From Bacillota bacterium (lineage in GTDB: Bacteria; Bacillota; Clostridia; Lachnospirales; Bianqueaceae): a stretch of DNA of 64,000 nt. The notes beneath the pieces are model-generated. The model worked only from the letters and a program-made list of their open reading frames with translations. It was not told where the DNA came from and did not search any database. The stretch lies in NCBI GenBank assembly GCA_017441925.1, contig JAFRUE010000016.1, forward strand, positions 5,269-69,268, read 5' to 3'. Positions within the stretch are counted from its first letter, which is position 1. The number at the start of each line of letters is the position of its first letter. A program made the position numbers and the translations under genes. Positions 20,965 to 34,657 of this stretch are shown in pieces.

Positions 20965-22896
20965 ATGAAAAAGAAAACAACGAAGACCCTGTCACTCATG
21001 CTTTGCATCTGCCTGCTTCTGGTCTGCTGCTCCTGCATCAGTCCGGATAAAGAGGCCGATGCCGGCAGCTCCGTTCCCAAGGAGGAATCCGCTCCAGGCG
21101 AATCTTCCTCTGAGGCTTCCGCCAAGCCGGAAGAATCCTCTGAGGCCAGCTCCGGGAGTGATACTGTTCCCGCCGAACCGGACGCGGATACGGCTATGAG
21201 CAATTTCGTCGCAAAGCTTGACGCCGGCAATTATGTGATCGATCATGAGGATTCCGTCAAAACGACGGTCTTCTCTCCTGAAAGGATCTTCTTTACTGAG
21301 GATAACGATTCATCTTCTTCCATCAATCTCGGATATGTAACGCTTGATAACGAGACATTCCTGGTAGAACTGAACGACATCAGCGACGTCGAATTCGTCG
21401 CGCCCGGCAATGCGATCGAAGCGCTGGGATCCATTCTTCCCAACGACTGGTACGCATACAGCGGCGAGAATATGTTCAACCTGTTCTACAACAACGTCGA
21501 TAATCCGCTTGAATTCACCTCCAATGACGAGGCTGTAAAGCTGACCCTGCTCCGGCTCGGCGGGTACAGTGAACAGGCGGTTTCCGTTATGGAAGAAGTC
21601 CATATGCTGCTTGACGCGGAGGATCCCTCATCTGTACGTTTCACCGCGGTCATGGGCCAGTACGGCATGATCAAGTACGACGATCTTGATGTAACGCTGC
21701 AGTTCGGCGTAGGTGAGAACGATCCGCGTATCGATAAATGGTTCGCGAATCCGATCTATCCTCCGACAAGGACCGCCTGGACTTGGAACGATGTTGCCGA
21801 CCTGGATCTCGTGTTCGAGAGAGGATACGGTGAAGACGCTGTCCCGTTCCCCGAATTTGCAAGCTATGCTCTGATTTTTGATCCTCATGCGTACGAACAG
21901 CAGACGATCGTCCGGATCATGGACGCTCACGGGACCGAGGCGGACCTGGAAGCATACAAAGCCGCGCTTCTCGCCAAAGGCTATGAAGCTGTAGAGGCAA
22001 CCTTCTCCGACGGCAGCACCGACACTGTTTACCGTCTCCTCTTAAGAGAAGCTTATCACAGCTATGCCGAGCTCTATCCGTACTATGACAACGGCTTTGT
22101 TCTGGAAGGCGGACTGTATTACGACAATCCTGTTTATGAAGGCCTGCCCGCGATCAGCGATGCTGTTGCAAAGAACGGATTCCCGGAGCTTGCGGAAACG
22201 GATCTCTTCAAAGAATGGAAAGCGACAGATACTGCCGCATCGAGAAGCGAAGGCTGGGCGTACTTCTTCGATTATGACCTTCTCATCTCGATGACGCTCG
22301 AATATGATGAGGAGAATGAAGCGGACGCCGTCGCGTATTTTGAAGAGTATTCTGACAGACTTGCGGAAGCCGGTTTCCATTCCGAGTATGTCCCGGAAGA
22401 GATCGGCGGCAAATATGAATCATCGAATGACTTTACATCTTTCAGATACGCGTTCAATGAAGACGGTACCGTATCCGTAGAGTTCAAGAAAGAAAAGAGT
22501 CTTACTCCTGATGAAGTCAAGGCGCTCCTTGCCGAACACGGCATCCCGGTCGCAGACATCCACGGAGATATCGCATGCAGGGATCAGACCCGCTACCGCT
22601 ACATCATCGGAGAATTCAAAGGGATCTTCCTCTTCGTCTACCAGCCGTTTGACACCAGAGAAGAAGCCGAGAGCTTCCTCGACGACTATACCGCTGTTCT
22701 GGATGAAGAAGGATATCTGCCCATGGATCCTCAGAAGCTCGGTTCTCAGAGAACATTCCTTTTCTTCAACGAAGATCTTGGAAAGTATGTCGCATTTGAT
22801 CTGTTCGATGACGGCGACGGCGCGACCGCGGCATTTGAGTTTGTTTCGATCGAACCGGATGAGGAGACCACTCTGCAGAGCGTACTTCGTCATTAA
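20965..22896 (+). CDS. acidic lipoprotein of unknown function
   Basis: Signal peptide with lipobox (LLLVCCSC), Ser/Glu-rich linker, 643 aa, good RBS. I recognise no family. Confidence 0.7.
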   Translation: MKKKTTKTLSLMLCICLLLVCCSCISPDKEADAGSSVPKEESAPGESSSEASAKPEESSEASSGSDTVPAEPDADTAMSNFVAKLDAGNYVIDHEDSVKTTVFSPERIFFTEDNDSSSSINLGYVTLDNETFLVELNDISDVEFVAPGNAIEALGSILPNDWYAYSGENMFNLFYNNVDNPLEFTSNDEAVKLTLLRLGGYSEQAVSVMEEVHMLLDAEDPSSVRFTAVMGQYGMIKYDDLDVTLQFGVGENDPRIDKWFANPIYPPTRTAWTWNDVADLDLVFERGYGEDAVPFPEFASYALIFDPHAYEQQTIVRIMDAHGTEADLEAYKAALLAKGYEAVEATFSDGSTDTVYRLLLREAYHSYAELYPYYDNGFVLEGGLYYDNPVYEGLPAISDAVAKNGFPELAETDLFKEWKATDTAASRSEGWAYFFDYDLLISMTLEYDEENEADAVAYFEEYSDRLAEAGFHSEYVPEEIGGKYESSNDFTSFRYAFNEDGTVSVEFKKEKSLTPDEVKALLAEHGIPVADIHGDIACRDQTRYRYIIGEFKGIFLFVYQPFDTREEAESFLDDYTAVLDEEGYLPMDPQKLGSQRTFLFFNEDLGKYVAFDLFDDGDGATAAFEFVSIEPDEETTLQSVLRH

Positions 22897-22977: not shown

Positions 22978-24558
22978 ATGAGTAATGTTATGAACAGTAT
23001 AGCCGTAAGCATCACGCTGTCCGGCAGGATCGATTCCAACAACGCAGCCGAGACCGAAAAAGGCATACTGGCGCAGCTGGAGGGACATAAGAATGCAGCC
23101 GTCATCCTGGACGCTTCTGCGCTCGAGTATATCTCAAGCGCCGGTCTGCGTGTGATCCTGCGTGTGAAGAAGTCTTATCCGGATCTTACGATCAAGGGTG
23201 TCAGCCCGGAGGTCTATGAGATTCTTGATATGACCGGCTTTACCGAAATGATGACAGTGGAAAAAGCCTACCGCGTCGTTTCAGTGGAAGGCTGCGAGGA
23301 GATCGGACGCGGCGCCAACGGTACGATCTACCGGATCGACCAGGACAACGTTGTAAAGGTCTACAACAATGCTGACGCTCTCGAGGATATCCAGCATGAG
23401 CGTGAAGTCGCGAAACTGGCGCTGATTCTGGGTATTCCCACAGCAATCTCTTATGACGTCGTACGCGTCGGCGAGAGCTATGGTTCCGTATTTGAGCTCC
23501 TCAATGCCAAAGCTTTCTCCAACATCCTGGCAAAAGAGCCGGAGAAGATGGACTGGTGCGTGCAGGAATACGTTGAATTGCTCAAGAAGATCCATTCCAC
23601 GCTGGTCCCGGCCGGGAAACTGCCCGACATGAAGGAGACAGCGCTTTCCTGGGCCGCTTTCATGCAGGATTATCTGCCGGAAGAAGCCAGCCGCAAGCTG
23701 CTTGCCCTCGTGCAGGCGGTACCGCATGACGATCACATGATCCACGGTGATTACCATACAAAGAACGTAATGCTGCAGAATGACGAAGTCCTGCTGATCG
23801 ATATGGACACGCTGGCTGTCGGACATCCGGTCTTTGAACTGGCTTCCATGTACAATTCCTTTGTCGGCTACTCTGAAGTGTATCATGATACGATTCTTGG
23901 ATTCCAGGGCTTTGACTATGAGACCGGCCGCGCTTTCTGGCGCAAATCCCTCTCCGCCTATCTCGGCACATCCAATGAGAAGAAAATCCAGGAGGTCGCG
24001 GATAAGGCCCGTGTCATCGGCTATACGCGTATGATCCGCCGATCCATCCGCCGTAAGGGACTGGAGACCGCGGAAGGCCGCGCCGAGATCGAGTACTGGA
24101 AGAGCGAGCTGCTCGCGCTGCTCGAGCATGTCGATACGCTTCTCTTCTCCCGCAATGAGATCGAGGTCGAAGCAGACATCCAGAATCTCCCGGAGGTACA
24201 GGCTTTTGTTGAGACGCATCTGGAAAATGTCGAATGCCCTCCGAAAGCACAGATGCAGATCGGCCTCGCTGTTGAAGAGATCTTCGTAAATATCGCGAAT
24301 TATGCTTACACTCCGGGCAGGGGGAACGCCATTATCCGCGTGGAAGTTTCGGAAGAGCCCGTTGCCGTTACGATCACGTTCCTGGATCACGGCATCCCCT
24401 ATGATCCGCTTGCCAAAACGGATCCCGACGTATCCCTCTCCGCACAGGAACGCGATATCGGCGGTCTTGGCATCTTCCTCGCGAAAAAGACCATGGACGA
24501 CATCAGCTACGAGTATAAAAACGGTCAGAACATTCTGACGCTTAAAAAACAGCTCTGA
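22978..24558 (+). CDS. three-domain protein: STAS (anti-sigma antagonist-like) + APH/protein-kinase-like phosphotransferase + SpoIIAB-like GHKL ATPase
   Basis: aa 1-97 STAS (LEYISSAGLRVIL). The middle domain has a Gly-rich loop GRGANGTIY, VVKVY, HGDYHTKNVML and LIDMDT. The C-terminal domain has N-box EEIFVNIANYA, DHGIPYDP and GGLGIFLAKK. Confidence 0.8.
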   Translation: MSNVMNSIAVSITLSGRIDSNNAAETEKGILAQLEGHKNAAVILDASALEYISSAGLRVILRVKKSYPDLTIKGVSPEVYEILDMTGFTEMMTVEKAYRVVSVEGCEEIGRGANGTIYRIDQDNVVKVYNNADALEDIQHEREVAKLALILGIPTAISYDVVRVGESYGSVFELLNAKAFSNILAKEPEKMDWCVQEYVELLKKIHSTLVPAGKLPDMKETALSWAAFMQDYLPEEASRKLLALVQAVPHDDHMIHGDYHTKNVMLQNDEVLLIDMDTLAVGHPVFELASMYNSFVGYSEVYHDTILGFQGFDYETGRAFWRKSLSAYLGTSNEKKIQEVADKARVIGYTRMIRRSIRRKGLETAEGRAEIEYWKSELLALLEHVDTLLFSRNEIEVEADIQNLPEVQAFVETHLENVECPPKAQMQIGLAVEEIFVNIANYAYTPGRGNAIIRVEVSEEPVAVTITFLDHGIPYDPLAKTDPDVSLSAQERDIGGLGIFLAKKTMDDISYEYKNGQNILTLKKQL

Positions 24559-26230: not shown

Positions 26231-26950
26231 TCAGCGCAGTTTCCTCGTCAGTGCGGCAAGAACCGCCCGCGGTGTATTCTCTTCTGCCTCGATCGTGTAT
26301 ACGGCTTCATGAATATGCGGCAGATAGTGCGCGTCCGAATCAAAGATCACGTTGCAGTTCTCCAGATACGGATTCTGCTCCCGGACCTTGTGCAATGTCG
26401 AGGGCGAAGCCAGCTCAAAACACTTGAATTTGCTGTCCGGCGGCACGAATCCGAGGTTGCTCATGACGCTTGTCGTGGATTTATCGATATGCGCGGGGAT
26501 CATCACGCCGTTATACTGCTCTGCCAGATCATAGACCTCATCAAAGCTGATATCCGTCGCATTGATCAGCAGATATGGTTCTGTCCCCGCCGGCTCGTCA
26601 TTAAGATCCCGCAGGACCTGCTCGCCGAAGAATTCCGGTCTGTTCGGCACTTTGATCAGGTGTTCATACACATACGCGTCAAAACGAAGCGCGTCTGCAA
26701 GCTCGGCAAAAAGACACAGGACATGGACCTCTTCCTGTGTCGTCAGTTCCATCCCGGGAATCGCCGTGATCCCGTACTGCGCGGCCTGGTGAAGCAGCGC
26801 AGGACAGTTGCGAGACGTATTGTGATCCGTCAGCGCGATCACATTCAGGCCTTTGATATAGGCCATTCCCGCGATATTTGCCGGTGTCATGTCGTCATCT
26901 CCGCAGGGAGACAGGCATGAATGCAGATGCAGATCGTAATACAGTTCCAT
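26231..26950 (-). CDS. PHP domain protein (polymerase/histidinol-phosphatase-like metal hydrolase)
   Basis: YDLHLHSCLSPCG...ALTDHN N-terminal PHP motifs. 239 aa. Confidence 0.85.
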   Translation of the reverse strand: MELYYDLHLHSCLSPCGDDDMTPANIAGMAYIKGLNVIALTDHNTSRNCPALLHQAAQYGITAIPGMELTTQEEVHVLCLFAELADALRFDAYVYEHLIKVPNRPEFFGEQVLRDLNDEPAGTEPYLLINATDISFDEVYDLAEQYNGVMIPAHIDKSTTSVMSNLGFVPPDSKFKCFELASPSTLHKVREQNPYLENCNVIFDSDAHYLPHIHEAVYTIEAEENTPRAVLAALTRKLR

Positions 26951-26973
26951 CTTACAGTGCCGGAATACCTCTC

Positions 26974-27309
26974 TTATGCATCCAGGAGCGCCTGGATCTG
27001 CATGGCAGTCTCAAAGATCGGCTGATCCGTCGCAAAGATCGTAAAGCCCTGCGTCTCAGCCCTCGCGATACCGACCGCGTCCATCTGCGCGCCTTCCGCG
27101 AGCACGATACAGGCCATATCCGTCAGACTCAGAACCGCTAGCGAATTGATATTGCCCATGACCGTGACCCAGGCCGCGTCGGCCTTGCCCCGGCCCATGA
27201 CGACACTCAGAAGATCGCAGCAGAATACGCCGCTGATCTCTCTGTCCGTATCGTCTCCGGCACACACGACCTTAAAGATCCCCTTGTCCGCCAGTTCCCT
27301 GATCGTCAT
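26974..27309 (-). CDS. DRTGG domain protein
   Basis: The start MTIRE... parallels the paralog at 29399. The CDLLSVVMGRGK...VMGNINSLAV pattern is typical of DRTGG. The ATG at 27309 overlaps the end of the upstream gene by 38 nt. Confidence 0.75.
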   Translation of the reverse strand: MTIRELADKGIFKVVCAGDDTDREISGVFCCDLLSVVMGRGKADAAWVTVMGNINSLAVLSLTDMACIVLAEGAQMDAVGIARAETQGFTIFATDQPIFETAMQIQALLDA

Positions 27310-28609
27310 TCTTGTTTTCCTTCCTGTTCTTACGCACATCCAGGAACGACATCTCGTCCGATATGTGCTGGATATACTCTTTCAGAATGTAAATACAGTC
27401 GCTCTCCTTCGCGATGCCCCTGACGATATCCTCTGCCAGCGCACGGCAGCTCGGTGCTCCGCAGCTTCCGCAGTCCATGCCGGGGAAACGCTCCGTCAGC
27501 TCATCGACCTTGCGCATCATGGCGATGCTTTCCTTCAGTGTGCTGCCCAGCTTAAAGACCGGCTCATATTCGATCTCTCGGTTCCAGAAGCCGAGATCCT
27601 CAGGGACCTCGTGGTTCTTGGCGACCGGCAGATACTTGTTCAGCCGTTTCAGCTTGACCCGCGCGACATACGGATTCTCAACAGCCAGGACGCCGCCCAC
27701 GCATCCGCCCATGCAGGCGTTCAGCTCAATGAACTTAAGATTCGTGAATTTCTGGTCTTCCAGATCCTCCAGGACCTTGATCACGTTCTCAATACCGTCA
27801 GCCGCCAGATAATCATCCGTCAGCAGGCCTCCGGCTTCTCCGCCGCTGTTGCCCCAGCCGATGCCGATCCGGCCGGCTTCCGCAAGTTCTTCAGGCTGTT
27901 CCGCTGATTCCGGCATATACGGCAGAAGCAGCGGATACACGTCCTTCATCGCAAGAATCTCATCTACGTCGCAGTGATCAACGGTCAGCGGATACTTGCA
28001 GGAAGACACTTTGGCGGGACAGGGCGAGATGAAGAAGATGCCGATCTTCTCGGACGGCAGGCCTGTATCCTCCATGGCTTTGCGCCGCGCCATGGTCGCC
28101 GCAAGCTCGACCGGAGCTTCCAGCGGCAGCAGCTGGGGGATCAGGTTAGGGAACCGTACGCGGATCAGCTTAACGACTGAAGGGCAGGCTGTGCTGATCA
28201 GCGGCCACTGTTCCGGATGCGCGTCCACATAATCACGCGAAATATGAGAGATGATCTCTGCCGCCGCTCCGACCTCGTGTACAGCGTCAAATCCCATCTT
28301 CCTGAGCGCAGTCAGTACGATATTGGTATCGTCCAGATTGTTGAACTGTCCGTATAAGGACGGAGCCGGCAGCGCGACCGTGTACTCATAGTTCTTCATA
28401 TGCTCGACCGGATCATAGGTCGCGATCTTTGCATGATGCGGGCAGACACGGATACACTGACCGCAGTCAATGCAGTATTCTTTGGTGATCACGGCTTTAC
28501 CGTCCCGTACGCGGATCGCTCCCGTCGGACAACGTTTGATACAGTTCGTGCAGCCTTTGCACGCGTCCCTGTCCAGACGCACTGAGTTTTCGAATTTACC
28601 GTTGCTCAT
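27272..28609 (-). CDS. [FeFe]-hydrogenase-like Fe-S protein (putative sensory HydS-type, no PAS domain)
   Basis: Two ferredoxin-type CxxCxxCxxxCP motifs. H-domain-like motifs STACPS (L1 variant), SPCPAK (L2) and ELNACMGGCVGG (L3). C-terminal CGSCGAPSC cluster motif. Confidence 0.8.
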   Translation of the reverse strand: MSNGKFENSVRLDRDACKGCTNCIKRCPTGAIRVRDGKAVITKEYCIDCGQCIRVCPHHAKIATYDPVEHMKNYEYTVALPAPSLYGQFNNLDDTNIVLTALRKMGFDAVHEVGAAAEIISHISRDYVDAHPEQWPLISTACPSVVKLIRVRFPNLIPQLLPLEAPVELAATMARRKAMEDTGLPSEKIGIFFISPCPAKVSSCKYPLTVDHCDVDEILAMKDVYPLLLPYMPESAEQPEELAEAGRIGIGWGNSGGEAGGLLTDDYLAADGIENVIKVLEDLEDQKFTNLKFIELNACMGGCVGGVLAVENPYVARVKLKRLNKYLPVAKNHEVPEDLGFWNREIEYEPVFKLGSTLKESIAMMRKVDELTERFPGMDCGSCGAPSCRALAEDIVRGIAKESDCIYILKEYIQHISDEMSFLDVRKNRKENKNDDQGTGGQGDL

Positions 28610-28629
28610 AATGCCTCCGTATTAAACGG

Positions 28630-29052
28630 TCAGAAACGGACTTTCATATGTACTGTCGTTCCGACCCCTACTTCCGATTCAATGGAAAACTCATCGGAGT
28701 ATTTCTTCATGTTGGGCAGACCCATGCCCGCTCCGAATCCGAGTCCGCGCACATCTTCCGGCGCGGTGGAGAAACCTGCCTGCATCGCCTGCTCGATGTC
28801 CGCGATGCCGGGGCCGTGATCCTCCAGCAGCATATCCACATCTTCCGGGGTAATCTCTACCGTAATCTGTCCCCCGTGTGCATGGATCACCATATTGATC
28901 TCGCCTTCATACATGCTGATCGCGACTTTGCGGATCGCTTCCGGCGGGATCCCCATCTTTCTCAGCTTTTGCTTGATATCGCTCGAAGCCTCGCCGGCCC
29001 TGGTAAAATCATCGCCGGGAACGTCATATTTCAGTACGATCGCGTCGCTCAT
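28630..29052 (-). CDS. stand-alone GHKL ATPase (anti-sigma regulatory factor/Ser kinase-like)
   Basis: 140 aa. N-box EGEINMVIHA, DHGPGI, GFGAGMGLPNM. Confidence 0.8.
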   Translation of the reverse strand: MSDAIVLKYDVPGDDFTRAGEASSDIKQKLRKMGIPPEAIRKVAISMYEGEINMVIHAHGGQITVEITPEDVDMLLEDHGPGIADIEQAMQAGFSTAPEDVRGLGFGAGMGLPNMKKYSDEFSIESEVGVGTTVHMKVRF

Positions 29053-29399
29053 ATCCGGCTTCCTCCCCGCAGGCCGTTCTCATACAGCAGGCCGCAGGAG
29101 GGGAACATCGCGAGCTTTGTGCTCAGGATGACGAGATCGTTCTCCCTGGCAAGCTCTATCATCGTGTCGGTGGGAACTTTGCTGCGTACAAAAACAAGGC
29201 ATACGATATCCATCATCTCCGCGGTACGGATCGCCTGCGGATTGCATAGTCCTGTCAGAAGGACCGCCTGATCCTTAACAAACGCGAGCACGTCGCTCAT
29301 CAGGTCGCTGCCGCAGGCCGTATGGACTTCGCGGTCCAGCAGCTCTTCTCCGCAGCAGACCTCGGCGTCCAGGATTTTCTGTATTTCTCTGATTGTCAT
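29049..29399 (-). CDS. DRTGG domain protein
   Basis: 116 aa. GSDLMSDVLAF...LLTGLCNPQAIRTA. ATGA overlap with the downstream ATPase gene. Confidence 0.78.
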   Translation of the reverse strand: MTIREIQKILDAEVCCGEELLDREVHTACGSDLMSDVLAFVKDQAVLLTGLCNPQAIRTAEMMDIVCLVFVRSKVPTDTMIELARENDLVILSTKLAMFPSCGLLYENGLRGGSRI

Positions 29400-29418: not shown

Positions 29419-29452
29419 AAAAAGCACAGGTCGGTTACGGCCTGTGCTTTTT
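29419..29452 (-). terminator. intrinsic terminator/attenuator between hydA and the downstream regulatory genes
   Basis: AAAAA-GCACAGG-tcggttacgg-CCTGTGC-TTTTT, 27 nt after the hydA stop and 20 nt before the DRTGG start. Confidence 0.7.
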
Positions 29453-29478: not shown

Positions 29479-31248
29479 TCAATCCGAGGTATAGTTGTTG
29501 ATCTTGCGGGCTACGTAGGAAGTATGCAGCAGATGATGTGCCTTCTCACTGCCCGGAGTTCCGTAGAAGTTCTCGTAGATCTCCTTGATCGCGGGATTCT
29601 CATGGGACTTACGCAGAGTGGTCTTATCATCCATGTCATACAGAACCTTGGCGCGAAGCGCGCGGATGTCCACATTGTTGCGGACATAACCCGGCTGACG
29701 GGGCTGTCCGCCGCCGTTTACGCAGCCACCCGGGCAAGCCATGATCTCGATGAACTGATAATCGTTCATCTCGCCTGCGCGAACCTTTTCCATAACCTTG
29801 CGGGCATTCTCCAGACCGGAAGCGACGCAGACCTTAACGGTCATGCCGCCGACGTTGTAAGAAGCCGTCTTGATTCCCTTGGTTCCGCGAACGTCGTTGA
29901 ACTCGATTCTCGGAAGGGTTTCGCCGGTGATGGTCTCAACAGCGGTACGAAGCGCTGCTTCCATAACACCGCCGGTCGCTCCGAAGATTGTGCCGGCTCC
30001 GGAACCCAGACCAAACGGATTGTCATACTCTTCGTTCGGCAGGGACTGGAAGTCCAGACCGAATCTCTTGATCAGGCGGGCAAGCTCGCGGGTCGTGATG
30101 GAGATGTCAACGTCGGGCATACCGTTCGCGTCCTGATCGTCACGTCCGATCTCGAACTTCTTGGCGGTACACGGCATTACGTCTACCATTACGATATCCT
30201 TGGGATCGTATCCCATCTTCTGTGCCCAGTAGGACTTGGCCGTCGCGCCGAACATCTGCGCGGGGGACTTGCAGCTGGACAGATGCGGAATCAGATCCGG
30301 GAAGAAATTCTCGCAGAACTTAACCCAACCGGGTGAGCAGGAGGTGAACAGCGGCAGTGTGCCCTTGTTCTGAATTCTCTCGATGAGCTCATGAGCCTCT
30401 TCCATAATAGTCAGGTCGGCCGCGAAATCGGTATTGAATACCTTCTCGAAGCCCATGCGGCGCAGAGCAGCAACCATCTGTCCGTCTACGTTGGTTCCGA
30501 TCGGATAACCGAACTCTTCGCCAAGAGCCGCGCGGATGGAAGGAGCGGTCTGTACGATCACGTGCTTGGTCGGATCCTGCAGCGCGACGATGACCTTACC
30601 GGTGTCGTCCGTCTCGGACAGAGCTCCGGTCGGGCATACAGCGATACACTGTCCGCAGTGGATGCACTCGGTCTCATCCAGAGGCATCTCATACGCGGAT
30701 CCGATATTGGTGTTGAAACCACGGTGGTTCTTGCCGATGACGCCGATTCCCTGCGTCTTCTCGCAGACTGCGGTACAGCGCATGCAAAGGATGCACTTGC
30801 TGTTGTCGCGGTACATATGGACCGCGCTGTCATCGATCTCGGACGGTGTCTGTTCGCCGTCGAAATATGTTTCGTCCGTTACGCCCAGTTCATGGGCCAG
30901 GGTCTGAAGCTCGCAGGCTCCGGATCTGACGCAGGACAGGCAGGAACGGTTATGGTTTGAAAGAAGCAGCTGCAGTGTGCGGCGGCGGGAATCCATTACC
31001 TTGGGGGTATTGGTGAATACTTCCATGCCTTCCGCTACCGGGTATACGCAGGCGGTGACCAGCGATCTTGCACGCGCGACCTCGACAACACACATACGGC
31101 AGGCGCCGACTTCGTTGATGTCCTTAAGGAAGCAAAGCGTGGGGATGCGGACTCCGGCGGCCCTGGCAGCGTCCAGAATAGTGGAGCCGGCAGGAACAGC
31201 TGTTTCGATTCCGTTTATTTTCAGATGAACGAGATTCTCGTTAGCCAT
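29479..31248 (-). CDS. hydA: [FeFe]-hydrogenase catalytic subunit HydA (group A3, bifurcating type)
   Basis: 589 aa. N-terminal 2Fe-2S, His-ligated 4Fe-4S and two 4Fe-4S motifs. H-cluster L2 MPCTAKKFE and L3 EIMACPGGCVNGGGQP. L1 reads TSCSPGW. Confidence 0.92.
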   Translation of the reverse strand: MANENLVHLKINGIETAVPAGSTILDAARAAGVRIPTLCFLKDINEVGACRMCVVEVARARSLVTACVYPVAEGMEVFTNTPKVMDSRRRTLQLLLSNHNRSCLSCVRSGACELQTLAHELGVTDETYFDGEQTPSEIDDSAVHMYRDNSKCILCMRCTAVCEKTQGIGVIGKNHRGFNTNIGSAYEMPLDETECIHCGQCIAVCPTGALSETDDTGKVIVALQDPTKHVIVQTAPSIRAALGEEFGYPIGTNVDGQMVAALRRMGFEKVFNTDFAADLTIMEEAHELIERIQNKGTLPLFTSCSPGWVKFCENFFPDLIPHLSSCKSPAQMFGATAKSYWAQKMGYDPKDIVMVDVMPCTAKKFEIGRDDQDANGMPDVDISITTRELARLIKRFGLDFQSLPNEEYDNPFGLGSGAGTIFGATGGVMEAALRTAVETITGETLPRIEFNDVRGTKGIKTASYNVGGMTVKVCVASGLENARKVMEKVRAGEMNDYQFIEIMACPGGCVNGGGQPRQPGYVRNNVDIRALRAKVLYDMDDKTTLRKSHENPAIKEIYENFYGTPGSEKAHHLLHTSYVARKINNYTSD

Positions 31249-31261
31249 TTGCTTTCCCTCC

Positions 31262-33055
31262 TTACTTCTTATAAACCGCGCCGAACTTGCAGACCGTCAT
31301 ACAGGTTCCGCACTTGACGCACTTGGACTGATCGATGACATGAGGCTGCTTGACGGTACCGGTGATGGCCTTGGTCGGGCAGTTGCGGGCGCACATGGTG
31401 CAGCCGCGGCACTTGTCAGGATCGATGTTGTAGGAAAGAAGCGACTTGCAGACGCCGGCCGGGCATCTCTTTTCCTGGATATGAGCGATATACTCATCAC
31501 GGAAATACTTCAGCGTGGAAAGAACCGGGTTAGGCGCGGTCTGTCCAAGTCCGCAGAGAGCGTTGTCCTTGATGTAGTACGCAAGCTCTTCCAGCTTGTC
31601 AAGATCTTCCATGGTTGCCTGACCTTCGGTGATCTTGGTCAGGATCTCCAGCATACGCTTGGTACCGACACGGCACGGTGTGCACTTACCGCAGGATTCC
31701 TCCACGATGAATTCCATGAAGTACTTGGCGATATCGACCATGCAGTTGTCTTCGTCCATAACGATCATTCCGCCGGATCCCATGATGGAGCCGATCTCGG
31801 CCAGATGCTCGTAGTCGATCGCGACGTCCAGATATTCCGCAGGAATACATCCGCCGGAAGGTCCGCCGGTCTGAACTGCCTTGAACTTCTTGCCGTTCGG
31901 GCAGCCGCCGCCGATCTCCTCGACGATCTCACGCAGCGGAGTTCCCATCGGGATCTCTACAAGACCTGTATTGTTGATCTTGCCGCCAAGCGCGAAGACC
32001 TTGGTTCCCTTGGACTTCTCGGAACCGATGGAAGAGAACCATTCCGGTCCGTTCAGGATGATCTGCGCTACGTTGGCATAAGTCTCAACGTTGTTAAGAA
32101 TGGTGGGCTTCTGGAAAAGTCCCTTCAGAGCCGGGAACGGAGGACGCGGACGAGGCTCGCCGCGGTTGCCTTCGATAGAGGTCATCAGAGCTGTCTCCTC
32201 GCCGCAGACGAAAGCGCCGGCGCCGAGACGCAGCTTGATGTCAAAGGAGAAATCCGTTCCGAAGATGTTCTTGCCGAGAAGGCCCATTTCCTCAGCCTGC
32301 GCGATAGCGACTTCCAGACGGTGTACGGCCAGAGGATACTCGGCACGTACGTAAATATAGCCGTGAGCGGAACCGATCGCATAGCCGGCGATGGCCATTG
32401 CTTCCAGAACGGCATGCGGATCGCCTTCCAGAATGGAACGGTCCATGAACGCGCCGGGGTCGCCCTCGTCAGCGTTGCAGCAGACATACTTGTCTTCCGG
32501 GTCAGCTTTATTGACCGCGCAGAATTTCCACTTCTGGCCGGTCGGGAAACCGGCGCCGCCGCGGCCGCGCAGACCGGACGCAAGGATTGTCTCGATGACT
32601 TCGTCGGGAGTCATGGTAGTCAGGACTTTGCCAAGCGCCTGATAACCGTCTCTCGCGATGTACTCCTCGATTCTCTCGGGGTTGATGACTCCGCAGTTGC
32701 GGAGCGCGATACGATGCTGTTTCTTATAGAAAGCGGTGTCGTTCAGTGTCTTGACTTCTGCCTGAGGAGTGGTCTCCTTATAGATCAGTCTCTCGACCGG
32801 ACGGCCCTTCAGCAGATGCTCGGCAACGATCTCGTGTACGTCCTCGGGCTGAACATGGCTGTAATAAACAGCGTCCGGATAGACGATAACGATCGGGCCG
32901 ACGGCGCACAGACCGTGACAACCGGTCTGGACGACTTCGACTTCATCCTGCAGACCCGCTGCCGCGATCTCTGCCTTGAAGTTATCCTGGATCTTGGGAC
33001 TACCGGAAGAAGTACATCCGGTTCCGCCGCACACCAGTACAGATGAGCGATACAT
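31262..33055 (-). CDS. hydB: NADH-binding flavoprotein subunit HydB (NuoF-like)
   Basis: 597 aa. N-terminal thioredoxin-like 2Fe-2S, FMN/NADH motifs (GRGGAGFPTGQKW, ESCGKCTPCR), two C-terminal 4Fe-4S motifs. Confidence 0.93.
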   Translation of the reverse strand: MYRSSVLVCGGTGCTSSGSPKIQDNFKAEIAAAGLQDEVEVVQTGCHGLCAVGPIVIVYPDAVYYSHVQPEDVHEIVAEHLLKGRPVERLIYKETTPQAEVKTLNDTAFYKKQHRIALRNCGVINPERIEEYIARDGYQALGKVLTTMTPDEVIETILASGLRGRGGAGFPTGQKWKFCAVNKADPEDKYVCCNADEGDPGAFMDRSILEGDPHAVLEAMAIAGYAIGSAHGYIYVRAEYPLAVHRLEVAIAQAEEMGLLGKNIFGTDFSFDIKLRLGAGAFVCGEETALMTSIEGNRGEPRPRPPFPALKGLFQKPTILNNVETYANVAQIILNGPEWFSSIGSEKSKGTKVFALGGKINNTGLVEIPMGTPLREIVEEIGGGCPNGKKFKAVQTGGPSGGCIPAEYLDVAIDYEHLAEIGSIMGSGGMIVMDEDNCMVDIAKYFMEFIVEESCGKCTPCRVGTKRMLEILTKITEGQATMEDLDKLEELAYYIKDNALCGLGQTAPNPVLSTLKYFRDEYIAHIQEKRCPAGVCKSLLSYNIDPDKCRGCTMCARNCPTKAITGTVKQPHVIDQSKCVKCGTCMTVCKFGAVYKK

Positions 33056-33070
33056 AGATGTAAGTCCTCC

Positions 33071-33451
33071 TTATTTGAGATTTGAAGATTCCAGAGTATA
33101 CTCACGCACTACGTGTCCGCCGACCAGATGACGGGTGAACACTTCCTGCGCCTTGTCCGGATTCATGTAAATATACGTTACCTTGGGCTTGCCCTGCTCT
33201 ACGACCTCAACGATCGGCTCATACTGACACAGTCCGATGCATCCGGTCTGCGTCACCATGATCTTGTCGGTCATGTTCTTTTCCTGTACGACGTCCGAAA
33301 GCGTTCTAAGTACAGGACGGGCTCCGCTCGCGATTCCGCAGGTAGCCATACCTACGAGAACACGGATCTTGCCCTCTCCGCCGTCACGCTGATTCAGGTC
33401 TCCCTGCATCTTCTCGCGGATCTCTTTCAGTTTGTCCAGTGTCATTGCCAT
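33071..33451 (-). CDS. (2Fe-2S) thioredoxin-like ferredoxin
   Basis: 126 aa. MATCGIASGA and TGCIGLCQYEP motifs. Confidence 0.85.
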   Translation of the reverse strand: MAMTLDKLKEIREKMQGDLNQRDGGEGKIRVLVGMATCGIASGARPVLRTLSDVVQEKNMTDKIMVTQTGCIGLCQYEPIVEVVEQGKPKVTYIYMNPDKAQEVFTRHLVGGHVVREYTLESSNLK

Positions 33452-33487: not shown

Positions 33488-34045
33488 TCAGTAAACAGCT
33501 CCGCCGTCGGTATCTGCACGATTTTCTTTCAGATACTGTCTGATAAATCCCATCACATCCTGGGTGTTTAAGGGAACACCCCCGAGGATCTCGCGCATCT
33601 CGCGCGTGTCCAGTTCAAAGGACTTCTCGTTGTACCGGTAGATATACCGGAAATCCACCTCTGTGTGACACTCGATCAGCGTCAGGATCGTCCCGTCCAT
33701 GTCTCCGAGCGGCTGTCTGTCGATATTGGAATAGCCGAATACCGCAGTCACCGTCGTACCCACGCCCGGTTCCGACTCGATCAGGAAACTCCCGCCGGTC
33801 ATCTCCGCGGCCTGTTTCAGGAAAGGAACACCCAGTCCGACTTTACGGGTCGTCCTTGTCGTAAAGAACGGATCCGTTACCGACGCGACCTGTTCCTTGG
33901 TCATCCCGCAGCCGTCATCCGCGATCACGACCGTCATCGTGTCCGCGGCCGTATCGACCGCAACCTCGATCGTCACAAGACTCGCTCCCGCTCTCGTCGA
34001 ATTCTCGGCGATATCCAGGATGTTCAGTGAAATCTCAGGCATCAT
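33488..34045 (-). CDS. stand-alone GHKL/histidine-kinase-like ATPase
   Basis: 185 aa. NILDIAENSTRAG (N-box), DDGCGM (G1), GLGVPFL (G2). No HisKA/dimerisation domain. Confidence 0.82.
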   Translation of the reverse strand: MMPEISLNILDIAENSTRAGASLVTIEVAVDTAADTMTVVIADDGCGMTKEQVASVTDPFFTTRTTRKVGLGVPFLKQAAEMTGGSFLIESEPGVGTTVTAVFGYSNIDRQPLGDMDGTILTLIECHTEVDFRYIYRYNEKSFELDTREMREILGGVPLNTQDVMGFIRQYLKENRADTDGGAVY

Positions 34046-34056
34046 AGCCGTTTACC

Positions 34057-34548
34057 TTAATACTTATCAAGAATCCCCTTGACCATATCCGGTGTCAGAC
34101 GTCCGTAAACGGTGCCGTCGATCATCATGACCGGAGCCAGTCCGCATGCGCCGACGCAGCGGCAGGACGAAAGCGAGAACTTGCCGTCCTGAGTGCATTC
34201 ACCGGGTTTGATCCCCAGAAGCTCCTGCGCTTTCTCAAGGACCAGACCGGATCCTTTGACATAGCAGGCAGTCCCAAGGCAGATGCTGATCTCATGCTCG
34301 CCCTTGGGCATCAGTGCAAACTGAGCATAGAAGGTGGCTACGCCGTAGATCTTCTCCAGCGGCACGCCGGTCTCTGTCGCGATGATCTGCATGACCTCGA
34401 TCGGCAGATAACCGTAGATATCCTGTGCCTTCTGCATGATCGGCATCAGGAAACCTTTCTCACCTTTAAGCTCAGCAATCATGGAGCGAAGCTGTGCCTC
34501 CTGCTCCGCCGTTCCCTTGAAGGGAACGTTCTTCATCTTTTGAGCCAT
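34057..34548 (-). CDS. hydC: NuoE-like 2Fe-2S subunit HydC
   Basis: CLGTACYVKG...SCRCVGACGLAP motif. The start at 34548 (MAQKMKN) is preceded by AGGGAGG; the ORF is open to 34605. Confidence 0.9.
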   Translation of the reverse strand: MAQKMKNVPFKGTAEQEAQLRSMIAELKGEKGFLMPIMQKAQDIYGYLPIEVMQIIATETGVPLEKIYGVATFYAQFALMPKGEHEISICLGTACYVKGSGLVLEKAQELLGIKPGECTQDGKFSLSSCRCVGACGLAPVMMIDGTVYGRLTPDMVKGILDKY

Positions 34549-34628
34549 ACTTACCTCCCTAATCTGTGGGCACCCGCGCTTATCCTGCGTAAATCTCTCC
34601 GGCACGGCGCTCCTTTTCAGTAAAATAA

Positions 34629-34657
34629 ATTATAACATGCAGGATTTTAAAAGTCAA
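34629..34657 (-). promoter_or_regulatory. promoter of the hydrogenase operon
   Basis: On the minus strand: TTGACT, 17-nt spacer, TATAAT, about 80 nt upstream of hydC. Confidence 0.6.

Follow-up and report, generated by a model that had tools for sequence, protein, structure and literature searches.

A conserved DRTGG, GHKL, HydS and PHP gene cassette beside a hydrogenase operon in a Bacillota genome: a putative H2-sensing signalling module

Within a 64,000-nt stretch of contig JAFRUE010000016.1 (the window, to which all coordinates below refer), from a member of the Bacillota, five genes follow the gene for the catalytic subunit of an [FeFe] hydrogenase and encode two small DRTGG proteins, a GHKL ATPase, a second hydrogenase-like protein of the HydS type and a PHP phosphoesterase. 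An earlier note on this sequence had proposed that these genes form an H2-sensing signalling cassette. Here we compare the locus with its counterparts in other genomes; the joint movement of the five genes, their natural fusions and the replacement of HydS by a CBS domain pair back that proposal, and we give a probability of about 0.75 to these genes being a signalling cassette in which HydS provides the input.

The cassette and the hydrogenase operon

The cassette, the hyd operon and the signals around them are as follows.

29049-29399, minus strand: DRTGG1, a stand-alone DRTGG protein of 116 aa (PF07085, 30.1 bits against a gathering cut-off of 25.2)
28630-29052, minus strand: GHKL1, a 140-aa SpoIIAB/RsbW-like GHKL ATPase (HATPase_c_2, PF13581, 43.9 bits; also HATPase_c)
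27272-28609, minus strand: HydS-type [FeFe] hydrogenase of 445 aa (two Fer4 domains, Fe_hyd_lg_C at 102 bits, PF04060)
26974-27309, minus strand, reading frame open to 27339: DRTGG2, 111 aa from MTIRE (PF07085, 21.8 bits, just under the cut-off)
26231-26950, minus strand: PHP metal-dependent phosphoesterase of 239 aa (PF02811, 34.3 bits against a cut-off of 26.4)
34057-34605, minus strand: hydC, NuoE-like (PF01257, 167.8 bits), with a GTG start and an AAAGGAG ribosome-binding site
33488-34045, minus strand: GHKL2, 185 aa, a stand-alone catalytic and ATP-binding (CA) domain of the histidine-kinase type with an 80-aa tail (HATPase_c, 57 bits)
33071-33451, minus strand: hydD, a 126-aa thioredoxin-like 2Fe-2S protein (Pfam 2Fe-2S_thioredx; NCBIfam 2Fe-2S ferredoxin)
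31262-33055, minus strand: hydB, a NuoF-like flavoprotein (Complex1_51K, NADH_4Fe-4S, Fer4)
29479-31248, minus strand: hydA, an M3-type [FeFe] hydrogenase catalytic subunit (Fer2_4, NADH-G_4Fe-4S_3, Fer4, Fe_hyd_lg_C at 329 bits, Fe_hyd_SSU)
29419-29452, minus strand: predicted intrinsic-terminator hairpin in the spacer between hydA and DRTGG1 (A5, a 12-bp stem, T5)
34629-34657, minus strand: sigma-70-like promoter 5' of hydC (TTGACT-17-TATAAT, extended TG, 11 of 12 matches), proposed from its match to the consensus alone

The five reading frames lie exactly where the earlier note had placed them, on one strand after hydA and packed or overlapping: DRTGG1 and GHKL1 share 4 nt and HydS and DRTGG2 38 nt, and the remaining gaps measure 20 nt and 23 nt. 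The likely true start of DRTGG2 is at 27309, where a GGAAGGA ribosome-binding site precedes the internal start, and the translations of both DRTGG paralogues do begin with MTIRE. Every domain named in the note was recovered with Pfam (DRTGG2 below the cut-off, supported by hhalign), no HisKA, receiver or DNA-binding domain was found by Pfam in the five proteins, and the second GHKL protein reported inside the structural operon sits between hydC and the 2Fe-2S gene hydD. The description of the neighbouring enzyme as a bifurcating hydrogenase agrees with the domain sets of an M3-type HydA, a NuoF-like HydB and a NuoE-like HydC, with bifurcation itself remaining a prediction. HydA and HydS are the sole two H-domain proteins of the genome, the cassette standing beside the organism's only [FeFe] hydrogenase, and DRTGG1 and DRTGG2 are its sole DRTGG proteins.

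The 79-nt spacer between hydA and DRTGG1 has a minimum free energy of -25.6 kcal/mol (z = -3.3) and carries an AAGGAG ribosome-binding site 3' of the hairpin. Given this strong hairpin after hydA and the consensus-like promoter before hydC, expression of the cassette probably depends on read-through of the terminator or on an internal promoter that went unrecognised.

Conservation, natural fusions and exchange of the sensor

Two sets of loci were assembled: a close-relative set, for which species-representative genomes were searched with a HydS profile, yielding 80 loci, mostly from Lachnospiraceae and Oscillospiraceae, and a phylum-wide set of 60 loci spread over families and mapped with hidden Markov models built from the first 80 (individual loci are numbered with an L below). 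The order DRTGG1-GHKL1-HydS-DRTGG2 occurs in 80 of the 80 close-relative loci, and PHP joins it in that order in 78. Across both sets the exact five-gene order, as separate reading frames, is present in 121 of 140 loci, with most exceptions due to fusions or contig ends. Because the same order recurs in so many loci from other genomes, it is not due to chance, and the gene-neighbourhood comparison proposed in the earlier note thus finds the neighbourhood conserved outside this genome. Group D HydS was detected in 152 of 401 genomes sampled across the phylum (~38%); in the same genomes the HydS and DRTGG1 profiles were found together in 149, HydS only in 3, DRTGG1 only in 15 and neither in 234, counts that are uncorrected for kinship.

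The position of the cassette relative to the hydrogenase is more variable. The hyd operon lies directly downstream of the cassette on the same strand in 60 of the 140 loci, upstream and divergent in 38, downstream and convergent in one, and outside the fetched flanks in 41; several genomes have the cassette between hydC and GHKL2. The order seen in the window, hyd operon then cassette, occurs in none of the 140 other loci, so that the placement of the cassette downstream of the hydrogenase, as the note had it, holds here, whereas in most genomes the cassette is upstream of, or divergent from, hydCBA. HydS, HydA and HydB of the window are 64-79% identical to Lachnospiraceae proteins, and HydS is just 41-57% identical to HydS of the same family or order, one genome of the same genus carrying the 44% type. 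The hyd-then-cassette order corresponds to the divergent Lachnospiraceae layout with the hyd block inverted. Together, the Lachnospiraceae-like identities and the inverted hyd block suggest that the hyd/cassette region was acquired horizontally, with an inversion afterwards.

In some genomes neighbouring genes are joined into one reading frame without an intervening stop, each such fusion being confirmed by Pfam. DRTGG1 is fused to GHKL1 in four genomes (L106, L110, L149, L150), GHKL1 to the N-terminal end of HydS in L097, DRTGG2 to the C-terminus of HydS in L093, L094 and L096, PHP to GHKL2 in L134 and L135, and GHKL2 to HydD in L111. In a collection of 5.8 billion proteins, the PHP-GHKL2 fusion is represented by at least 118 clusters with the full two-domain length, down to 40% identity, and the HydS-DRTGG2 fusion by about 13, including Syntrophomonadaceae and Dethiobacter. 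PHP is followed directly by GHKL2 in many genomes, often as a fusion, and HydD and GHKL2 travel together across loci; functionally, GHKL2 belongs to the cassette module.

From nine of the 15 genomes with DRTGG1 but no HydS, 11 loci were retrieved. In six of them (L157-L161, L166) GHKL1 carries a CBS pair as an N-terminal fusion; four of the six keep DRTGG2, PHP and GHKL2, and in the other two a HydD-like gene follows GHKL1. Three of the 11 (including L163 and L167) have no sensor between GHKL1 and DRTGG2, and in L162 (genome G082) HydS and PHP are reduced to short fragments among an intact DRTGG1, DRTGG2 and hyd operon, so that in this one lineage the sensor seems to be decaying. Since a CBS pair takes the place of HydS in such loci, the sensor is exchangeable, with the DRTGG, GHKL1, PHP and GHKL2 proteins as the constant core.

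The enzyme beside the cassette is exchanged too. Among the 60 phylum-wide loci there are six (L134, L135, L139, L140, L142, L143) in which the protein matched as HydA is the N-terminal part of a formate dehydrogenase with an in-frame stop, and the cassette with HydC, GHKL2, HydD and HydB stands beside this split formate dehydrogenase, which is probably of the selenocysteine type. In L153 and L155, metagenome and NCBI contigs with distant PHP-GHKL2 fusions, the full cassette lies 5' of NuoE/F/G-like genes, FlpD and a [NiFe] hydrogenase; HdrABC-like genes precede it, and multihaem cytochromes are encoded on one of the contigs. As the catalytic partner varies among HydA, formate dehydrogenase and [NiFe] hydrogenase, the constant neighbour is the NuoE/NuoF-type flavin module with GHKL2 and HydD, and not HydA. 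An [FeFe] H-cluster protein beside a complete [NiFe] hydrogenase also argues for a sensory over a catalytic role. Clustering of all other reading frames from the 140 loci yielded no further conserved neighbour (regulator, sigma factor or receiver), none being present in more than 15 loci.

The L1 motif of HydA in the window (30325-30345) reads TSCSPGW instead of the textbook TSCCPxW. Because Ser occupies this position in at least 90% of the 89 HydA orthologues beside a cassette, it is a feature of the clade and not a lesion.

The HydS, GHKL, DRTGG and PHP proteins

HydS keeps all four Cys ligands of the H-cluster, C142 in motif L1 (STACP), C197 in L2 (SPCPAK) and C299 and C303 in L3 (ELNACMGGCVGG), and each is at least 95% conserved among 141 sequences. 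In L1 the proton-relay Cys (C299 of CpI) is replaced by Ala, with the ligand Cys retained. The position of Met353 is occupied by Ser (S-P-C), as in TamHydS of Thermoanaerobacter mathranii, and that of M497 by Asn (E-L-N-A-C), where TamHydS has Leu. Two [4Fe-4S] motifs (the two Fer4 domains) form the N-terminus, a C-terminal cluster motif, C380x2C383x4C388x16C405, coincides with PF04060 over residues 376-407, and Pfam gave no match to a PAS domain in the protein. As these hallmarks match the published descriptions of TamHydS (PMC8163306, PMC13104023), HydS is, by architecture and motifs, a group D (M2e) putative sensory [FeFe] hydrogenase. TamHydS lacks a proton relay and turns over H2, if slowly, and such low turnover together with an H2-dependent conformational response is known from that protein only (PMC8163306, PMC13104023); H2 sensing at the present locus is what we infer from this biochemistry. 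The earlier note had treated sensory [FeFe] hydrogenases as an accepted class, whereas for group D the literature still calls the sensory role 'putative'.

A second, longer HydS-like reading frame of ~750-800 aa stands near the cassette in L093, L094, L105, L149 and L150; it probably encodes a histidine-kinase-linked sensory hydrogenase of group C, and in L093 and L094 it has a weak GHKL-type match.

GHKL1 finds its best NCBIfam match in the anti-sigma F factor SpoIIAB (TIGR01925, 63 bits against a cut-off of 135), scores 20.6 against the RsbW family (cut-off 145), and has SpoIIAB (1til, E 7e-12) and RsbW as its top PDB matches. The N box (E49, N53), G1 box (D78xGxG82) and G2 box (G105-L112) are conserved and there is no dimerization and histidine phosphotransfer (DHp) domain; we class it as a putative Ser/Thr protein kinase. 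We rejected its assignment as a genuine anti-sigma factor, given family scores under the cut-offs and the absence of a sigma or STAS gene from the locus; the conserved neighbours of the cassette in the 140 loci include no gene for STAS, a sigma factor or PP2C.

The two DRTGG proteins are paralogues (hhalign probability 97.8%, 24% identity) in which a D-x-x-S motif is conserved, DRTGG1 being far more conserved than DRTGG2. Residues at least 95% conserved among 130 DRTGG1 sequences are D32, S35, D36, T49-G50-L51, Q55, R58, T59, R72, K74, C102 and G103; in DRTGG2 the conserved positions are D32, L34, S35, W47, T49 and N55. For DRTGG1, two structural relatives and no others were found, the orphan protein AF_1212 (2ioj) and the DRTGG insert of CBS-pyrophosphatases, and a PDB profile search with DRTGG2 gave no significant match. 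The CBS-DRTGG-CBS insert of family II pyrophosphatases and AF_1212 are the only structurally known DRTGG domains. In the pyrophosphatases the domain acts intramolecularly, in dimerisation or regulation of the enzyme, whereas here separate DRTGG proteins are paired with kinases; the CBS-DRTGG association nevertheless recurs in the HydS-less variants of the cassette. The start-stop overlap of DRTGG1 and GHKL1 is present in 65 of 79 loci, and overlaps are frequent at the other cassette junctions too. An AlphaFold2 model of a natural DRTGG1-GHKL1 fusion (predicted local distance difference test score, pLDDT, 89; predicted template modelling score, pTM, 0.74; disordered linker) places the DxxS motif where a strand meets the N-terminus of a helix, in the lowest-confidence part of the DRTGG domain. 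This modelled location would suit a phospho-acceptor and a phosphate-binding site alike.

In PHP the metal site is complete: the ligands H8, H10, C16, H43, E68, H76, H154, D206 and H208 are at least 95% conserved, C16 being a conserved Cys where many PHPs carry His. The top Foldseek matches of the AlphaFold2 model (pLDDT 93.4, pTM 0.91) are PHP structures, in keeping with the distorted TIM barrel of that superfamily; its closest folds are EndoQ, BAD_1165, RNase AM, the pAp phosphatase Cv1693, the PHP domains of Pol III and TM0559. Membership in the curated TrpH/YciV family (RNase AM, pAp phosphatase) was rejected, with scores far below the cut-offs (NF041577, 35.8 against 400; NF047791, 27.4 against 375) and alignment over the N-terminal ~80 residues only. 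A CpsB/YwqE-type protein phosphatase was likewise discarded, this type being absent among the significant PDB-sequence and Foldseek matches.

GHKL2 begins at the N box and conserves N15, D43xGxG47, PFFTTR and G70xG72 as well as its 80-aa tail. Its top PDB matches are the CA domains of KinB, WalK, ZraS and SrrB, with branched-chain alpha-ketoacid dehydrogenase (BCKDH) kinase also listed. We do not regard it as a two-component sensor histidine kinase, as it has no HisKA or DHp domain and no receiver gene lies nearby.

A proposed signalling chain and its alternatives

The locus belongs to a known, uncharacterised type of cluster, to which our comparison adds candidate partners and a probable target. 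Group D (M2e) proteins were classed as 'sensory' given the nearby protein kinases and bifurcating hydrogenases (Carere 2012), a histidine-kinase-like ATPase adjoins TamHydS (Land 2020), and an 'anti-sigma Ser/Thr kinase' and a PHP protein figure in the description of the Halanaerobium operon (Halsa_1862-1871). The HydS of these loci (TamHydS, TTE0887, Csac_1857, Cthe_0335, Cphy_3798, Athe_1292, Teth39_1463 and the Halanaerobium operon) has the same architecture as here, and its gene lies, again as here, within a few genes of those for a HydABC of three or four subunits, the window differing in that its cassette sits 3' of hydA behind a terminator. Published work on group D makes no mention of DRTGG proteins, fusions, the exchange with a CBS pair, or the formate dehydrogenase and [NiFe] contexts. 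In the literature searched we found no paper linking DRTGG to these hydrogenases, and none of relevance on sensory hydrogenases and partner switching, the locus tags turning up in genome surveys only. The literature thus agrees with the earlier note that the roles of the associated DRTGG, GHKL and PHP proteins are undefined; the 2026 TamHydS paper still asks that the interaction partners of HydS be identified. Group D HydS, which has no PAS domain, is under active spectroscopic study as a putative H2 sensor, and synteny, the chain of fusions and the HydS/CBS swap name DRTGG1, GHKL1, DRTGG2, PHP, GHKL2 and HydD as candidate partners.

Several characterised systems resemble the cassette in part. 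Group C proteins (HydS of Ruminococcus albus, HfsB of Thermoanaerobacterium, HydS of Thermotoga), for which there is genetic evidence of a regulatory role, likewise combine a slow H-cluster protein and a C-terminal 4-Cys cluster with an adjacent GHKL-type Ser/Thr kinase, but they have a PAS domain and a PP2C-type phosphatase where the present locus has no PAS domain, DRTGG and PHP instead, and an extra GHKL protein. With the SpoIIAA/SpoIIAB/SpoIIE and RsbR/RsbS/RsbT/RsbX modules the cassette shares a layout of a SpoIIAB-like kinase, two paralogous alpha/beta proteins of ~115 aa and a dedicated phosphoesterase; one of the small proteins is encoded in overlap with the kinase, and its paralogue is in some species fused to the sensor, as in RsbR. 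Those partner-switching modules, however, use STAS, PP2C and a sigma factor, whereas here there are DRTGG and PHP proteins, no sigma factor and putative phosphorylation. The HoxBC-HoxJ-HoxA system of Cupriavidus necator also couples a non-energy-conserving hydrogenase, as H2 sensor, to a kinase, but its proteins are unrelated, and its PAS histidine kinase and DNA-binding response regulator form an output that has no equivalent here. The mitochondrial kinases PDK and BCKDK with the phosphatase PDP resemble GHKL2 and PHP, in that a GHKL kinase without DHp and a phosphatase are encoded or bound with the redox complex that they control, a distant likeness that we take as an analogy of logic and not as homology of systems.

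We propose that the cassette is the regulatory set of group D HydS and would work with GHKL2 and HydD of the hyd operon. HydS, as a slow hydrogenase without a proton relay, would serve as an exchangeable H2 input domain, physically coupled to the SpoIIAB-like GHKL1 and the two small DRTGG proteins: DRTGG1 would be translationally coupled to GHKL1, and DRTGG2 would dock on the C-terminus of HydS, a layout that may parallel RsbR/RsbS/RsbT or SpoIIAA/SpoIIAB with DRTGG replacing STAS. PHP and GHKL2 would form an output or reset arm tied to HydD and the NuoE/NuoF-like flavin module, so that H2-dependent reversible phosphorylation or nucleotide-dependent partner exchange tunes the enzyme complex and not transcription. 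Control would act on the enzyme because the PHP-GHKL2 and GHKL2-HydD fusions suggest that a kinase/phosphoesterase pair operates there; synteny, the chain of fusions and the sensor swap together suggest the NADH/flavin module of bifurcating enzymes as the target rather than a promoter. We likewise infer the kinase and phosphatase chemistry, which protein is phosphorylated, which way the signal runs and what it acts on. For the whole chain, from H2 to post-translational control of the flavin module by the cassette, the odds seem to us evenly balanced.

Some observations weigh against this reading. PHP is nearest to nucleotide and nucleic-acid phosphoesterases, which makes a protein-phosphatase role a guess, and it is missing in a few lineages (L070, L096, L097, L117, L119, L121). 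Fusions of adjacent genes are partly expected from the mere loss of stop codons. H2 does not reduce the C-terminal cluster in TamHydS (2026 TamHydS paper), and a Ser at the N-terminus of a helix in a Rossmann-like fold could equally bind the phosphate of a ligand. Finally, a Rex gene lies directly upstream of DRTGG1 in eight of the 140 loci, a transcriptional link in some genomes.

This last point fits a view in which the same sensor acts on transcription, either with GHKL1 as an anti-sigma or partner-switching factor or through modulation of Rex, and an unlinked sigma factor or repressor alters hyd expression with H2. The nearest relatives of GHKL1 are indeed the anti-sigma factors SpoIIAB and RsbW, although its scores fall well under the cut-offs of both families. 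Deletion of the group C gene hfsB alters adhE and other transcript levels, and the NADH-dependent hydrogenase activity of Caldanaerobacter responds to the partial pressure of H2, as relayed in Carere 2012. Yet the conserved neighbours of the cassette in the 140 loci include no sigma, DNA-binding or receiver gene, the fusions tie the output arm to HydD and not to a regulator, and a search of the window for the Rex operator (TTGTTAAN4TTAACAA, up to three mismatches) brought up a single match, at chance level and remote from the hyd promoter, near which no Rex-box-like site lies. We consider a transcriptional output unlikely, with something like one chance in a handful of being right.

A device that reads nucleotides or energy charge is rather less probable in our judgement. 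Here DRTGG and GHKL proteins would bind adenine nucleotides, PHP would cleave a nucleotide of the pAp or dinucleoside-polyphosphate type, and H2 and adenylate status would jointly modulate the flavin module by allostery. The structural neighbours of PHP do act on nucleotides or nucleic acids, its NCBIfam matches include, under the cut-off in each case, RNase RNM and 3',5'-nucleoside bisphosphate phosphatase, the DRTGG domain is familiar elsewhere from family II pyrophosphatases as part of their nucleotide-regulated CBS-DRTGG insert, and the CBS pair that can replace HydS is of the type with adenosine ligands. GHKL1 and GHKL2, however, retain full kinase-type N, G1 and G2 boxes, GHKL1 falls in a protein-kinase clade, and no nucleotide cyclase or synthetase is conserved nearby in the 140 loci. 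We give little credence to HydS being no sensor at all but an auxiliary catalytic or electron-transfer subunit or a scaffold of the HydABC-type complex, with the small proteins serving assembly, repair or quality control. It keeps every H-cluster ligand and three accessory clusters, it is the sole H-cluster protein beside the HydBC module in the formate dehydrogenase and [NiFe] contexts, and TamHydS does turn over H2; but that characterised homologue has no proton pathway and low activity, HydS is dispensable, with a CBS pair substituting in the same gene set, and its place next to a complete [NiFe] hydrogenase fits a regulator better. The kinase-like and phosphoesterase-like companions are also typical of signalling, whereas [FeFe] maturation uses HydE/F/G.

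A wider version of the signalling proposal, tentative and on balance doubtful, is that DRTGG-fold proteins are an unrecognised class of partner-switching or phospho-acceptor proteins analogous to STAS. With a SpoIIAB-like kinase they would form a transducer that accepts exchangeable inputs (HydS for H2, a CBS pair for adenylates), and the PHP-GHKL2 pair would be a bifunctional kinase/phosphoesterase, in the logic of PDK/PDP or AceK, directly gating NuoEF-type bifurcating enzymes (HydABC, the formate dehydrogenase-HylBC type, Hox-like [NiFe]) at the protein level. If true, this would be a new layer of post-translational control over anaerobic H2 and formate metabolism in several phyla. The phylum includes Clostridia of the gut, the rumen and biofuel production. 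The cassette probably affects H2 production, the transfer of H2 between species and the balance of fermentation.

Other features of the window lie outside the cassette and the hyd operon. A 526-aa protein at 22978-24558 (plus strand), 1.6 kb from the cassette, combines a STAS domain, an APH-type phosphotransferase and HATPase_c_2 (RsbW-like); it is not conserved beside the cassette in the 140 loci. A 643-aa reading frame at 20965-22896 (plus strand) has no Pfam match. The segment 12001-14000 has a G+C content of 0.35, against ~0.55 in the rest of the window, and may be a foreign island.

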